Assembly (NCBI GenBank): GCA_036679645.1
Contig: JAZDCY010000033.1
Coordinates: 13,700-77,699, forward strand
Direction: 5' to 3'
Length of the DNA: 64,000 nucleotides
Source: Gemmatimonadota bacterium
Lineage (GTDB): Bacteria; Gemmatimonadota; Gemmatimonadetes; Gemmatimonadales; GWC2-71-9
Both the position numbers and the translations under genes were made by a program. The notes beneath the pieces were generated by a model. That model had not been told where the DNA came from and searched no databases. It saw only the letters and a list, made by a program, of their open reading frames with translations. This document shows positions 40,154-44,653 of the stretch, piece after piece; within the stretch, counting starts at the first letter, position 1; each line of letters begins with the position of its first letter.

Positions 40154-40851
40154 GCTGCACCTCCTTCGACGACGATGGTGCAGCGCAGCGACGCCGCAAG
40201 CTCGTATCCAATGACCTGCTGTATCCCTTCGCGCACGCAGATCGTAACAGGGCCCCGGAAGGGTTTCCGCTCGATCACCTCGAACTCCGCGCCCAGAACC
40301 AACCCGAGTGACGCGATATAGCGCAGTCGCTCCGGATCCTTGTCACTCACCATGCGGAACTCGGCGCACAGGCCGGGGTCGATCTCCGTGAGCGGCACAT
40401 GCGCGGTCTCCTCGATCTCGCCCGATCGGCTGGGAATGGGCGCACCGTGCGGATCGTGCTGCGGATCGCCGAGAACGCGGACCATGCGTTCGATCAACTC
40501 GTCCGAGACTGCATGCTCCAAGCGTTCCGCCTCTTCGTGGACGGAGTCCCAATCGTATCCGAGTTGCGAGGTCAGATAGGACTCGAGCACGCGGTGACGC
40601 CGCACAATGCGCAGCGCGGCTGTGCGTCCCGGCAACGTCAATTGGACGCCACGGTAGGGGACATGCTCCAGCAATCGCGCCTCGGCCAGGCGCTTGAGCA
40701 TGCCGGAGACCGACGCGGGCGCGACCTCGAGCGCCTCCGCGATCGCACTCGTCTGCACGGGGCCACCTTCGGCCCCGAGGGCGTAGATCGCCTTGAGGTA
40801 GTCCTCGGTCGATCGCGACAGACCGGCTGGAGCTGCTGCAGCTGCACCCAT
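40150..40851 (-). CDS. mntR: DtxR/MntR metal-dependent regulator with FeoA domain
   Basis: EDYLKAIY, RRHR..E, EAERLEH, DPHG.PIP. Confidence 0.92.
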   Translation of the reverse strand: MGAAAAAPAGLSRSTEDYLKAIYALGAEGGPVQTSAIAEALEVAPASVSGMLKRLAEARLLEHVPYRGVQLTLPGRTAALRIVRRHRVLESYLTSQLGYDWDSVHEEAERLEHAVSDELIERMVRVLGDPQHDPHGAPIPSRSGEIEETAHVPLTEIDPGLCAEFRMVSDKDPERLRYIASLGLVLGAEFEVIERKPFRGPVTICVREGIQQVIGYELAASLRCTIVVEGGAA

Positions 40852-40873
40852 GACACATCCGTCCCGGGAGAAA

Positions 40874-40887
40874 TTAGGTAAGACTAA
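40874..40887. promoter_or_regulatory. DtxR/MntR-type operator
   Basis: TTAGGTAAGACTAA palindrome just upstream of mntR. Confidence 0.7.
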
Positions 40888-40928
40888 AAATGTTTCGTGA
40901 CGTGCCGAAAAGCAAGGGAATTATGTAC

Positions 40929-40957
40929 TTGACGTAAACCGTTGGTAGTGTTATATT
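40929..40957 (+). promoter_or_regulatory. Sigma70 promoter in the left end (transposase)
   Basis: TTGACG-17-TATATT. Confidence 0.7.
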
Positions 40958-40986
40958 TCGTCAGGTAAAAAGATAGGAACCTGACG

Positions 40987-41982
40987 ATGACCCGCATAGC
41001 CGGAGACAAGGACCCCATAACTACCGCCCTCCCAAAGGCTTGCGTTGACGAGCGGATGGCGATGGACTTCCTAGAGACCCTGATCTGGGGCTACGAGCCC
41101 GCCTGCCCCCGCTGTGGCGATCTGGACGTGTACCCGATGAAGGAACGCAAGACCGGGGAACGTCAGGCCAACGGGCGTTGGCGCTGTCGGGGCTGCAAGC
41201 AGCAGTACACGGTGCGGACGGGCACCATCATGGAGGACTCTCGCATCCCGCTCAAGTATTGGTGTTTTGCGTTCTGGCGGGCGTGCAGCTCGAAGAAGGG
41301 CGTGAGCGCCCTCCAGATCAAACGCGAGACTGGCTTGAGCTACAAGAGCGCCTTGTTCCTGATGCACCGGATTCGCTACGCGATGAGTGGCGGCCCCGAC
41401 CGTCCGTTGCGGGGGACCGTGGAGGTAGATGAGACCTACGTGGGCGGGAAGCCCCGTCGCCACACGCGGAAGCAGAACCGCCGCCCCGGCGAGAACCCAA
41501 ACGTCCAGGGCCGCGCCCCGGACTTCCAGGATCGCAAGACGCCCGTAGTCGCCTTGGTCGAGCGAGGCGGGCCCGCGAAGGCGATCTCGCCAGGGGACGA
41601 ACACGTCACCGGCAAGAACCTCAAGCGGATCATGAGAGAAACCGTGGACCCGTCAGCGACGATCATGACGGACGAGTCCGGCGTCTATCGCGGGATCGGT
41701 CGCCACTTCGAGGGCGGACATTACACCGTCCGGCACTCGATCGGCGAGTACGTCCGGGGCGACGTGACCACCAACACGGTCGAGGGGTTCTTCTCACTCT
41801 TGAAGCGGGGTGTTGTTGGGACGTTTCACCACCTCAGTCGGAAGCACCTGGGGCGGTACGTCAGCGAGTTCGAGTTTAGGTACAACCATCGCAAGGTGAG
41901 TGACGGGGTGCGGACGGTGGCGGCGATCCGGGCGGGGATGAAGAAGCGGCTCACTTACGCCGACCATCTAGCGAGTGTATGA
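40987..41982 (+). CDS. IS1595 (ISXO2-like) DDE transposase
   Basis: Zn ribbon CPRC/CRGC; VEVDETYVGG, IMTDE, TNTVEG, EF.FRYN. Confidence 0.95.
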   Translation: MTRIAGDKDPITTALPKACVDERMAMDFLETLIWGYEPACPRCGDLDVYPMKERKTGERQANGRWRCRGCKQQYTVRTGTIMEDSRIPLKYWCFAFWRACSSKKGVSALQIKRETGLSYKSALFLMHRIRYAMSGGPDRPLRGTVEVDETYVGGKPRRHTRKQNRRPGENPNVQGRAPDFQDRKTPVVALVERGGPAKAISPGDEHVTGKNLKRIMRETVDPSATIMTDESGVYRGIGRHFEGGHYTVRHSIGEYVRGDVTTNTVEGFFSLLKRGVVGTFHHLSRKHLGRYVSEFEFRYNHRKVSDGVRTVAAIRAGMKKRLTYADHLASV

Positions 41983-42014
41983 ACAGTGGAGAACGAGACC
42001 TAGCGGAGGGACCT

Positions 42015-42260
42015 ATGGCGGAGAAGCCGAACGGGGAGAGCATCCGGTTGCGCGAGCAGATCATCGAGGATGAGGTCTCCGGTTTGACGATCCAGATCGA
42101 GCGTACCCCGAATGGCGAGGGGCGGGTCCGGCTGTTCGGCAACATCCCGTTCCGTCATCGCGATTTCGCCTTTGATCGCGACGGGAGATTGGTGGGAACG
42201 GGAACTGGCACATGTTCAACATGTGCCAGCCCCACGTCATGGTTGAAGGTGGTGGACTAG
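42015..42260 (+). CDS. Hypothetical passenger protein
   Basis: GGAGGGG RBS; an in-frame ATG at 41979 overlaps the transposase stop; C-terminal CSTC. Confidence 0.6.
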   Translation: MAEKPNGESIRLREQIIEDEVSGLTIQIERTPNGEGRVRLFGNIPFRHRDFAFDRDGRLVGTGTGTCSTCASPTSWLKVVD

Positions 42261-42556
42261 GGCGTCACGTCGTTGCACGCTGGCAACCGACCGTGACCGT
42301 TGTAGTACTCTTGTAGAAGCTCTCGCTCGCGCCCGAGTGGGGCGGCGTTCACTTCCGTCTTGAAGAATTGGGCTCGCTGTGTGCACGGGCCCTCGTTCCC
42401 CGCGTAGTGACTACGGAGGCGATCACGAATACTGATCGTCGAACTGCCGTAGTAGATGATGTCGGGCATCGTATCGAGCTGATAGACGCCCGGTTGTGCC
42501 GGTGCGCCTTCTATGCGCTCCGGAGTGAAACTCTGGTAATCGCCTTGAATCGGCAT
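42257..42556 (-). CDS. Small standalone GIY-YIG nuclease-like protein
   Basis: PGVY, IIYYG, IRDRL..H, RERELL, P.CN; GGGAGG RBS. Confidence 0.8.
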   Translation of the reverse strand: MPIQGDYQSFTPERIEGAPAQPGVYQLDTMPDIIYYGSSTISIRDRLRSHYAGNEGPCTQRAQFFKTEVNAAPLGRERELLQEYYNGHGRLPACNDVTP

Positions 42557-42598
42557 AAGCCGGATCCTCCCTTGGTGACATTTTTCACATTGTCAGAA

Positions 42599-42639
42599 GG
42601 GGGACTCGCCCATATATTAGTCAGCTTGGCGAGTCCCCC
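42599..42639 (-). terminator. Strong hairpin directly after the tRNA CCA
   Basis: gggggactcgcc / ggcgagtccccc; only a weak U tract. Confidence 0.55.
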
Positions 42640-42744
42640 TGGTGCGCCTGACGGGACTCGAACCCGCACGGGGTGTATCAGCCTACACAGCGGCACCCCA
42701 CTGGCTCCCAAGGCCAGCGTGTCTACCGGTTCCACCACAGACGC
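42640..42744 (-). tRNA. Atypical tRNA: Leu-type body, TGG (Pro) anticodon, very long variable arm
   Basis: GCGTCTG/CAGGCGC, A73, encoded CCA; D arm GTGGAACCGGTAGACAC; CTGGC-CTTGGGA-GCCAG; T arm GCGGG-TTCGAGT-CCCGT. Confidence 0.85.
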
Positions 42745-42795
42745 GAGCGGGGATGGCCGGAGGGCCCGAAGGCCCCCGGCCGCTAGGTCAGGGGG

Positions 42796-42807
42796 TTATG
42801 GCGGCAT
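42796..42807 (-). CDS. Candidate minigene Met-Pro-Pro-stop
   Basis: GAGGAGG-6 nt-ATG CCG CCA TAA. Confidence 0.55.
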   Translation of the reverse strand: MPP

Positions 42808-42894
42808 GGCAGACCTCCTCATGTATCGGCGGCGGTTTCGGAGCGATCTTGCCAAAGAAGATCCGAGACCGCCGCCTCGTTATTGGGGTTAGAA

Positions 42895-43323
42895 CTAGAA
42901 CGGAACGTCCTTCGGTTGATCGTCCTCGGCGCTCCACTCTGCTAGCCCATACCAGCCCCGTTTCGGGCTGCTAAAAACATCATCACGTCGCCTTAACGCA
43001 GACACAAGCGAACCCCTGATCTTGTCTGCGGCCTCGTCCGCTCGATACCCACGTCGTTGCATCTCCGCGATCAACCCTTGAATACGAACAATTTTCCCAA
43101 GTTCCTTGAGAACGGTCTGCGCTTGGCTGACGAGTTCACTTGACCGCGCCCGCCGCCGTTTCGGCGTCCCGTTAGTGCTCGGCATATCGTCGCCAAAAAG
43201 CTCTATGTGTTGCTCAAGCCCGGCGATCAGAGTTAGTATAGATTTGCGCCTTCGATCAATCTGGGTCAGTTCCCGTTTGAGGCGCTTAAGAGTCACGCGG
43301 TAGCTTTTTGTGTGATCCGTCAT
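42895..43323 (-). CDS. Coiled-coil plus winged-helix (HARE-HTH-like) protein
   Basis: N-terminal coiled coil; C-terminal ..F....RGWYGL.EW; TTGATC-16-TATCTT just upstream suggests a leaderless start. Confidence 0.7.
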   Translation of the reverse strand: MTDHTKSYRVTLKRLKRELTQIDRRRKSILTLIAGLEQHIELFGDDMPSTNGTPKRRRARSSELVSQAQTVLKELGKIVRIQGLIAEMQRRGYRADEAADKIRGSLVSALRRRDDVFSSPKRGWYGLAEWSAEDDQPKDVPF

Positions 43324-43345
43324 GCTCAGCAAGATAGCGAGTAAT

Positions 43346-43534
43346 ATGTCAGGATCAAGCGCCACAAACGGACCCGGAGAAGCCGCTGCCAATAAGGACG
43401 AGCGCCCAGGTCCTGACCCTGAGCGGCTCAAAGTCGAGGGGAACTGGAAGGACGCCCTCAGACGGGCTCTCCGAAAGAAGAAGCCAGCGGAGGGATGGCC
43501 GGGAAAAACCGCGAAAAACAAAGGGGCCCCTTAG
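43346..43534 (+). CDS. Small basic hypothetical protein
   Basis: PGPDPERLKVEGNWKDALRRALRKKKPAEGWP; followed by a ggggcccc/ggggcccc hairpin. Confidence 0.6.
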   Translation: MSGSSATNGPGEAAANKDERPGPDPERLKVEGNWKDALRRALRKKKPAEGWPGKTAKNKGAP

Positions 43535-43647
43535 TCGGGGGCCCCAAGAACTACATCAGCTTGCCAAGCCTTAGGAAGGTAGGACCTTCCCCATCTGATA
43601 GCAAGACCATTCGGTGTATCTTCTATTGACAAGCACGGCAGCAGGTG

Positions 43648-43720
43648 GGTGACGAACCGGACTTGAACCGGTTACTTCAGCTTGGCAAGCCGATGTGTTA
43701 CCAGTTACACTACCGCCACC
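43648..43720 (-). tRNA. Atypical tRNA: His-type acceptor (G-1:C73), GCC (Gly) anticodon
   Basis: G-GTGGCGG/TCGTCAC-C; D arm GTGT-AACTGGTA-ACAC; TCGGC-TTGCCAA-GCTGA; T arm ACCGG-TTCAAGT-CCGGT; CCA not encoded. Confidence 0.8.
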
Positions 43721-44010
43721 ACGACGGTTGCCGTACCTCTTCTGGATGCCAACCAAGCGGCGACCGCCTCACCTGTTACTGCCACAAACAATCTACTCGG
43801 GTGGAGCCCTTACTGCAACAACTGCCTGGACCGGCCCCCAGCCTAATCCTACCGAGGGGTGGCCGGGCCCTCGAAATAGAGAGGGGCCGGGCGTTTATCC
43901 CGGCCCCCAGCCCGATTAGTTGGCTAACTGCCCTGCCAGTCGATTATGCTGGCTGACCGACTTCGAGTAAAGCCGATCTAGTTCCTCCGGAGCCAGCGGA
44001 CCGGCCCGCA
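43721..44010 (-). ncRNA. Candidate structured non-coding RNA or tRNA leader
   Basis: No convincing ORF; several GC-rich hairpins; lies downstream of an inward promoter. Confidence 0.4.
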
Positions 44011-44015
44011 CTCCC

Positions 44016-44043
44016 AAGATAACGCCTCACCGCATTTACTCAA
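44016..44043 (-). promoter_or_regulatory. Inward-facing sigma70-like promoter in the right end
   Basis: TTGAGT-16-TATCTT, mirroring the left-end promoter. Confidence 0.5.
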
Positions 44044-44071
44044 GTACACAATTCCCAAAAGCAAGAGCAGG

Positions 44072-44653
44072 TCAGATGCTGCGGAGTAACTCCATGAACG
44101 GAGCGAGGATACGCTCGGTCATCCCCCAAATCAGGTGGGCGCCAACACGGTACCCGGACACGACGAGATCCTGCCCGCGCACGCATACGGTCTCGGTCAC
44201 ACGCGACTCCTCTAGTTCGTCCAGTCCGGCCCAGACGTGCAGCGCGACCTCAGGGCAGGACTGCACGGCGGGCGGACTCGAGAGGCCGAAGACGAAGGGA
44301 CGGACGACGATCTGGGGAAGATGGGGGCTGACCGGGCTGAGATCGCCCAGCTGACCGAGGTAATCAGCGCGCGACAAATCGAGTCCGGTTTCCTCCCGGG
44401 CCTCACGAGCTACGGTGGCGAGAAGATCGGCGTCCGCGGGGTCTCGTCTGCCGCCGGGTAGCGCCATCTGCCCCGACCAGGGATCTCCAAGACGCTCTGT
44501 GCGTTTAATAAAGAGAGCCCGCAAGCCGGCATCGTCGGACGGCACGAGCATGAGCGCAACCGCAGCCTCGCGTAGATCTGGCGTGATTGGGACTTGGCGA
44601 GGCGGCGATACCGACAGCCGGTCACGTATCGCCTCAAATGTGATATTGGTCAC
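44072..44653 (-). CDS. CoA pyrophosphatase (Nudix)
   Basis: AAV.L, SGQMALPGG, REAREETG, IWGMT. Confidence 0.92.
   Translation of the reverse strand: MTNITFEAIRDRLSVSPPRQVPITPDLREAAVALMLVPSDDAGLRALFIKRTERLGDPWSGQMALPGGRRDPADADLLATVAREAREETGLDLSRADYLGQLGDLSPVSPHLPQIVVRPFVFGLSSPPAVQSCPEVALHVWAGLDELEESRVTETVCVRGQDLVVSGYRVGAHLIWGMTERILAPFMELLRSI

Follow-up and report, generated by a model that had tools for sequence, protein, structure and literature searches.

A tRNA gene that combines a leucine-type body with a proline anticodon (UGG) lies as cargo inside a 3,141-bp transposon of the IS1595 family, at positions 40916-44056 of the 64,000-nucleotide stretch of Gemmatimonadota DNA analysed here (the window), and the transposases of the elements that carry such a tRNA hold the codon CCA at a few particular prolines. 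The best explanation found is that this selected tRNA is probably charged with leucine and would insert it at these CCA codons, an active transposase thus likely depending on the tRNA of the element. On a wider reading, somewhat more likely than not, a large IS1595 clade present in many phyla would use a private code, in which each element pairs a Leu-charged tRNA, with the anticodon UGG or at times UGC or another one, with locked codons of its own transposase, and programmed missense decoding at them switches transposition. That CCA is decoded as leucine, and that this decoding is aimed at the element's own transposase, is considered quite likely from the sequence evidence; once a direction is added, with Leu16 as the active form and Pro16 as the inactive one, the proposal becomes a tentative one.

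The tRNA gene, 105 nt long, is on the minus strand (42744-42640). It reaches 53.2 bits with the general tRNA model of Rfam (E 1.3e-8) and scores 78.8 bits against a family RNA model that includes the window sequence itself; a default ARAGORN run gave no call at this place. All four stems pair. The acceptor (GCGTCTG/CAGGCGC, with G1-C72) is followed by A73 and an encoded CCA, the D arm (GTG GAACCGGTAGA CAC) is almost identical to that of the host tRNA-Leu(CAG), the anticodon stem (CTGGC/GCCAG) closes the loop CT TGG GA with the anticodon at 42710-42708, the variable region of 33 nt contains a GGGGTG/CACCCC stem, and the T arm is GCGGG TTCGAGT CCCGT. A first-pass annotation, made from the letters alone, had described a Leu-type body with the Pro anticodon TGG, and this is confirmed by the Rfam match, the Leu determinants and the position of the anticodon; the same holds for the paired stems, A73, the encoded CCA, G1-C72, the Leu-like D arm and the 33-nt region with its stem. 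The contrast that it drew between this G1-C72 and the C1/G72 of bacterial tRNA-Pro is also valid within the host, whose genome encodes three tRNA-Pro, all with C1:G72, and five tRNA-Leu, including an intact TAG gene elsewhere. The interpretation offered in that annotation was supported in part, and the strand, the transposon context and the matched codons were absent from it. Folded alone, the sequence behaves no better than its shuffled versions (z -0.46), so the support for the structure comes from Rfam and from covariation in relatives. With regard to read support for the anticodon, which had been named as a check, one contig assembled from run X1, with a mean depth of 107, shows 0 differences over 40800-44200, but this contig is probably the source itself, assembled rather than raw reads, and therefore gives no independent support for TGG.

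The hairpin that follows the CCA end (Table 1) is a possible terminator or processing signal. A promoter-like site at 42590-42618 (+) is antisense and aimed into the tRNA; such downstream antisense sites are found in 28 of 128 relatives, compared with 5-9 in each of the other three quadrants, and part of them may be a promoter in the inverted end. Elsewhere in the host genome, six Leu-body tRNA-like genes have irregular anticodon arms (C7:130360-130443, C7:211519-211607, C11:12621-12709, C32:56781-56866, C47:754-841 and C59:8760-8848). ARAGORN calls them Ala, Val or undetermined, and no IS1595 transposase was found on the contigs that contain them (C7, C11, C32, C47 and C59).

Table 1. Features of the IS1595-family element and its cargo (window positions).
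Feature	Position	Strand	Remarks
Left terminal inverted repeat	40916..40932	+	16/17 complementary; target duplication AAAAGCAA before, at 40908-40915
IS1595 transposase, 331 aa	40987..41982	+	Pfam PF12760 and PF12762
Small ORF, 93 aa (81 counting from second ATG)	41979..42260	+	no Pfam match
Cargo ORF, 99 aa	42257..42556	-	weak GIY-YIG match, 22.2 vs curated cut-off 22.6 bits
12-bp perfect hairpin, immediately 3' of tRNA CCA end	42599..42639		sequence
Class II Leu-body tRNA, anticodon UGG	42640..42744	-	Rfam, family model, stem parse
Cargo ORF, 142 aa	42895..43323	-	weak HARE-HTH match; similar ORFs in related elements
Small basic protein GPxP...LKIEGDW...GWP	43346..43534	+	recurs in ~65 loci of related elements; not assigned to any family
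Second tRNA of the cargo, also irregular, with GCC anticodon on a His-like acceptor (G-1 at 43720, C73)	43648..43720	-	
Right terminal inverted repeat	44040..44056	-	target duplication AAAAGCAA after, at 44057-44064

IS1595 elements comprise a transposase with Zn-ribbon and DDE domains, short inverted ends, an 8-bp target duplication and passenger ORFs. The element of the window has 17-bp inverted ends with the 8-bp duplication AAAAGCAA on both sides, and is flanked by an iron-dependent repressor gene on one side and a NUDIX gene on the other; an 8-bp duplication is present in tRNA-free IS1595 relatives too. Its transposase, formed by a Zn-ribbon and an ISXO2-like DDE domain (Pfam, E 3e-10 and 1e-37), is the only IS1595 transposase among the long ORFs of the host genome, and the element is single-copy. 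A Foldseek search with this protein retrieved remote DDE integrase/transposase folds only, with nothing on residue 16. No synthetase ORF was found inside the element. The His-like tRNA with the GCC anticodon shares the strand of the UGG tRNA and lies 0.9 kb upstream of it, separated from it by ORFs and a terminator-like hairpin, and no C73 tRNA of its kind was parsed in the other UGG loci. The GPxP...LKIEGDW...GWP protein, of 50-60 aa, accompanies the main transposase clade; it has no Pfam match and falls in unnamed clusters of the Atlas, and it could be an accessory or a regulator. Its prolines are divided in CCA use less sharply than those of the transposase: the first two are CCA in 19/41 and 17/41 cases, and each of the last two in 3/47.

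To what extent the tRNA belongs to the transposon can be judged from 80 related-transposase loci collected independently of the tRNA. A Leu-body UGG tRNA is found in 33 of the 41 loci with a transposase at least 45% identical and in 0 of the 39 below this threshold, which was set after the data had been seen; a single genome accounts for two of the 33, as copies, and for two of the tRNAs the assignment came from the RNA model or from visual inspection. The named hosts include Planctomycetota, Gemmatimonadota, Gammaproteobacteria, Acidobacteriota, Krumholzibacteriota and Eisenbacteria. Among 33 loci examined, the tRNA lies inside the ends in all 15 that have both a pair of terminal inverted repeats and a target duplication; the other 18 comprise one with a pair of repeats but no duplication and 17 without any pair. 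One tRNA-bearing element, of 4,480 bp, has two copies in the same genome (L040/L041), each with its own target duplication, and therefore has moved. The presence of the tRNA is clustered on the tree (8 changes in a quick tree), and consequently the counts of sequences are not independent events. In one complete element (L011:6534-6599, minus strand) the TGG tRNA has decayed, with a shortened D arm, and CCA at site 1 of the transposase is intact, possibly reflecting a recent loss.

Searches that started from the tRNA gave a similar association. A pattern scan of metagenomes produced at least 119 matches; among the matches listed, 102 parse as full UGG tRNAs, 53 of which have an IS1595 transposase in the available DNA, and among the matches listed with at least 3 kb of DNA the transposase accompanies the tRNA in 30 of 37. 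Within the host order, 15 of 251 genomes contain the pattern, with nine tRNAs judged plausible by eye, and viral contigs contributed 18 matches, of which 12 are full tRNAs and five have a transposase in the available DNA. A DNA search of 401 genomes of the phylum retrieved mostly ordinary Leu(CAG) genes (a UGG relative was one of nine non-self loci inspected), and a distant-mode search of a plasmid collection gave no match. When any non-A35 anticodon was allowed as a control, phage GUU tRNAs made up 26 of the 52 parsed among the matches listed, and the scan therefore offers no clean anticodon background. These phage GUU (Asn) tRNAs (viral loci L228-L347) have G73, a long variable arm and a Leu-like D arm.

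The same Leu body is also found with UGC, AGA, UGA or CGA anticodons in other elements. For covariation between anticodon and codon, elements with an AGA (L034), UGA, CGA, UGU or GUC tRNA, or with a Ser-body CAA tRNA, are represented by one each, and the UGC/AGA loci L399, L401 and L402 had no IS1595 match within 5 kb. Further irregular tRNAs were seen in seven related elements (L015, L017, L021, L030, L069, L127 and L155), either Ser-like bodies with CAA or UUA or Leu bodies with UGA, CGA or UUA, and form tandem arrays in L021, L030, L127 and L155.

The leucine identity of the UGG tRNA has been assessed against the determinants known from E. coli, which, in the parts of the source covered, are A73, A15:U48, G18G19, A20a and the D/T-loop contacts, the anticodon being dispensable for charging by LeuRS (PMC9976931). 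The window tRNA has all of this Leu set and, having G35, is without the Leu anticodon base A35. Instead of the Pro features C1:G72, G15:C48 and a short variable loop, it has G1:C72, A15:U48 and 33 nt, and it does have the Pro-type G35, G36, G37 and A73. A leucine identity with a proline anticodon is thus well supported at the level of sequence. In a set of 32 tRNAs (30 from the transposase search, that of the window and one DNA match), 99.7% of the stem cells are paired, with both sides changed in 18 of 20 pairs, compared with 36-46% in slid controls. The anticodon stems average 36% identity, yet TGG, A14, A15, G18, G19, U48 and A73 are invariant; A15:U48 and G18G19 are kept in 32/32, while C1:G72 is found in 1/32. 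A broader collection holds at least 137 distinct UGG Leu-body sequences, about 105 obtained with a TGG-demanding pattern and 30 through the transposase search. Among 137 of them, A73 is present in 134, position 37 is A in 106 and G in 30, as in the window, and the variable region measures 13-22 nt in 100 and 25-35 nt in 37. These patterns indicate that the tRNA is under selection in the transposon family and that the long arm is optional there; the oversized arm emphasized in the first-pass annotation is real in this gene but not essential.

The second line of evidence comes from the transposase codons. In 65 tRNA-bearing transposases, CCA occurs 261 times, whereas 98 would be expected from the other four-fold boxes (2.65-fold), and 46 transposases without the tRNA have 51 against 48 expected. 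Within the tRNA-bearing group the codon is locked at residue 16 (site 1, 47/51), at a linker after the N-terminal domain (24/27) and at the C-terminal tail (site 3, 43/44), while five other conserved prolines are CCA in 2-9% and such structural prolines use CCG or CCC. When 154 column/four-fold-box pairs are ranked by third-base A, the top three are the locked Pro sites, and the non-Pro boxes have a mean of 0.12 and a maximum of 0.33. The locking stays after dereplication to 56 sequences of less than 75% identity (41/44, 22/25 and 38/39), and the flanking bases and a neighbouring Ala codon vary freely around the locked CCA. At least one of the three sites is CCA in 63 of 65 tRNA-bearing transposases versus 5 of 46 without the tRNA; among these exceptions, one locus retains a TGG tRNA in decayed form and another lies on a 2.9-kb contig. 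In all 3 of the 3 held-out elements for which a transposase was available, site 1 and the linker are both CCA, a fourth held-out locus having no transposase within the 5 kb examined, and nested lineages without the UGG tRNA show 0-1 CCA and Arg at residue 16. The window transposase, with CCA at Pro16, Pro171 and Pro202, has one of the three locked sites (Pro16, the main one); its site 3 is His and its linker Pro137 has another codon.

The avoidance of CCA at structural prolines (14/256 versus 8/114 without the tRNA) is not clearly tRNA-specific. Ala99 is GCA in 3/3 elements with the UGC anticodon versus 4/43 Ala codons in UGG elements, a result from three related elements in a column chosen post hoc. 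Several other causes of the CCA excess were considered and rejected. A DNA or RNA motif, or an antisense ORF, is contradicted by the free flanks and by an antisense frame that is open in only 19/44; a private code that restores a conserved leucine is contradicted by the finding that none of the columns in which Leu exceeds 40% contains a CCA codon, which also counts against the best explanation. The bypass of poly-Pro stalling, proposed in the first-pass annotation, is not supported, as CCA is not enriched in Pro-Pro pairs (7/261 CCA versus 19/512 other Pro codons in tRNA-bearing transposases). The companion proposal that leucine would be placed at CCA and CCG codons survives for CCA, through the locking, and is not supported for CCG, which together with CCC serves the structural prolines.

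The simplest account of a codon fixed at certain prolines and rare at the rest is that these elements do not decode CCA in the way they decode CCG and CCC, and given the Leu body the residue placed there would likely be leucine. According to the wobble rules, CCA is the Pro codon least served by CGG and GGG isoacceptors. Since the host has separate CGG and GGG tRNAs for CCG and CCC, CCA should be the codon at which the UGG tRNA competes best, and, as CCA makes up only 12% of the host Pro codons, the damage to the cell would be limited. In the proposed mechanism, the UGG tRNA would be charged by LeuRS, Leu would replace Pro at the locked CCA sites, and because of this insertion an active transposase would probably depend on the element's own tRNA; such a dependence would explain the retention of a costly tRNA. 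With Pro16, in the middle of the first helix, the transposase would be switched off, and with Leu16 it would be switched on.

This direction is the weakest step. In its favour, an AlphaFold model places Pro16 in mid-helix (helix 10-20, mean pLDDT 92), and only 3 of 46 tRNA-free relatives have Pro at site 1, and in two of these three the tRNA is decayed or the contig is cut; in the others the residue is Ser, Glu, Ala, Arg, Thr, Asn, Ile or Leu. Few elements outside the tRNA-bearing group therefore have this proline. In addition, prolines in normally non-Pro columns are mostly CCA (7/7, 6/6 and 6/9). The opposite direction, in which Pro would be the working residue and the Leu supplied by the tRNA would inactivate part of the transposase pool, acting in trans, growing with copy number and not yet operating when the element has newly entered a cell, is rather unlikely on balance, although some observations suit it better. 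Among the 120 closest proteins, site 1 is Pro in 119 and a gap in one (Pro is thus invariant, 119/119), never Leu, which appears once at site 3; no close homolog therefore encodes leucine directly at site 1, although a single transition would turn CCA into CTA, and an off switch fits this better. L023, in which no tRNA was found, keeps Pro16 with the codon relaxed to CCG, and the GCA at Ala99 of the UGC elements stands in a column where close homologs have only Ala, Ser, Thr or Gly, a point weakened by the origin of that result. Against such a brake, the prolines where leucine should harm most are the ones that avoid CCA, both site 1 and column 99 are occupied by Met, Leu or Ile in distant homologs, and a costly brake should be easily lost, yet 33 of 41 loci keep the tRNA. 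The direction with Leu16 as the active form is consequently preferred.

As for charging, leucylation by LeuRS is likely from the identity elements, and the main doubt is the host ProRS, which is of the archaeal/eukaryote type only. In the parts of the source covered, G72C caused a 135-fold loss for the bacterial-type ProRS of B. thuringiensis, whereas C72 cost a bacterial enzyme of archaeal/eukaryote type only 9.6-fold (PMC11229370). By analogy, the host ProRS may accept C72 and could charge the UGG tRNA too. If the tRNA accepted proline, alone or besides leucine, the CCA sites could work through translation speed, the element supplying or sensing the decoding of a codon that is read only by the host tRNA-Pro(UGG). 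The G35, G36, G37 and A73 of the tRNA, the absence of Leu from site 1 and the low share of CCA among host Pro codons agree with this, but it seems improbable: ProRS is of the bacterial, G72-dependent type in 8 of 10 other hosts, the Leu tertiary set is complete in 32/32 with C1:G72 in 1/32, the same body carries UGC, AGA, UGA or CGA in other elements, and a supply of proline gives no account of CCA at 89-98% in three columns and 2-9% in five.

Slightly less probable still is a main role of the tRNA in toxicity or defence, in which proteome-wide Pro-to-Leu mistranslation would serve addiction, dormancy or abortive infection, the transposase codons being a secondary adaptation. In the parts of the sources covered, missense allo-tRNAs are toxic in E. 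coli and irregular tRNAs occur near toxin-antitoxin genes (PMC5389517), and tRNA-ProX is toxic in E. coli as well (PMC10404621); Fic, SocA/Panacea and MqsA-like ORFs (3-4 loci each) and ochre-reading tRNAs are present in loci related to the one studied here. Tolerance alone, however, predicts a loss of CCA and not the 2.65-fold excess, and no toxin-antitoxin partner recurs across the related loci beyond a few. A role of this kind can coexist with the best explanation. It is, finally, very unlikely that TGG is a sequencing error, a drifted copy of Leu(TAG) or part of a tRNA mimic kept off the ribosome. In favour of such readings, only one base separates TGG from TAG, A37 (106/137 relatives) is unusual for a UGG reader, and, in the passages covered, some G-1 irregular tRNAs are charged yet unused in E. 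coli translation (PMC5389517). Against this stand the at least 137 distinct UGG Leu-body sequences with full covariation, the in-frame, codon-specific locking of CCA with free flanks and the intact host Leu(TAG) elsewhere. Sequencing error and drift, the altered-TAG case raised in the first-pass annotation, are already refuted by the relatives that keep TGG, the covariation and the locking.

Frameshifting and antisense RNA are known translational controls of IS transposases. In Streptomyces, the bldA tRNA-Leu(UAA) is an example of one tRNA that governs its target genes via a few conserved TTA codons; it is cognate and chromosomal and supplies a rare codon. The UGG tRNA differs from it in being non-cognate, mobile and matched to a gene of its own carrier. 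Closer in structure are the irregular tRNAs of soil metatranscriptomes, which comprise Leu-body (7/5) tRNAs carrying UUA as well as His-like G-1 tRNAs whose anticodons do not fit, and for which a link to transposons or toxin-antitoxin systems was proposed (Mukai et al., 2017; PMC5389517). As far as the parts covered go, tRNA2 of that study, 'tRNA-Leu (7/5)', shares with the UGG tRNA the Leu body, similar variable arms and a non-Leu anticodon, but reads UAA, and tRNA1, 'His (7/5, G-1)', charged by HisRS with no translation in E. coli, is of the type of the GCC tRNA of the window (PMC5389517). In the irregular polycistrons, tRNA2 is transcribed together with tRNA0/tRNA1 as a tandem (PMC5389517). 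In those parts, no carrier element or matched codons are described, and the supplement text contains neither a UGG anticodon nor IS1595 (PMC5389517). The allo-tRNAs of the same work, as presented there in the passages covered, have an 8/4 or 9/3 acceptor branch and a Ser/Ala identity, whereas the UGG tRNA is 7/5 with A73 (PMC5389517). The molecule alone is, in sum, a variant of the irregular tRNAs of Mukai et al.

The tRNA-ProX/ProRSx systems of Streptomyces and Kitasatospora are likewise, in the passages covered, a natural and patchy missense family with a mismatch between body and anticodon (PMC10404621; PMC11415595). Their arrangement is reversed, with a Pro body and an Ala, Asn or Thr anticodon beside a dedicated synthetase, proSx, and the parts covered mention no transposon, while the UGG tRNA is inside one without a synthetase (PMC10404621). 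The covered passages of reviews on non-canonical tRNAs (PMC7609411) and on mistranslation (PMC11415595) contain nothing comparable, and open-access full texts on IS1595 yielded no tRNA passengers and no codon-level control. No description of a codon-matched transposon tRNA was found in the open-access full-text literature, subscription journals being mostly outside this coverage; the matched tRNA/transposase system has no counterpart in the literature searched.

The finding has some practical consequences, as standard tRNA finders miss such tRNAs or label them tRNA-Pro. Pro-to-Leu mistranslation may occur in about 6 of every 100 genomes of the host order, or fewer. If the proposal is true, natural mistranslating tRNAs, the purpose of which has so far been open, would gain a named carrier and a named target, and the IS1595 family would exemplify a new control of mobile elements, a site-specific, programmed missense decoding by an element-borne tRNA, to be placed beside frameshifting and antisense RNA.
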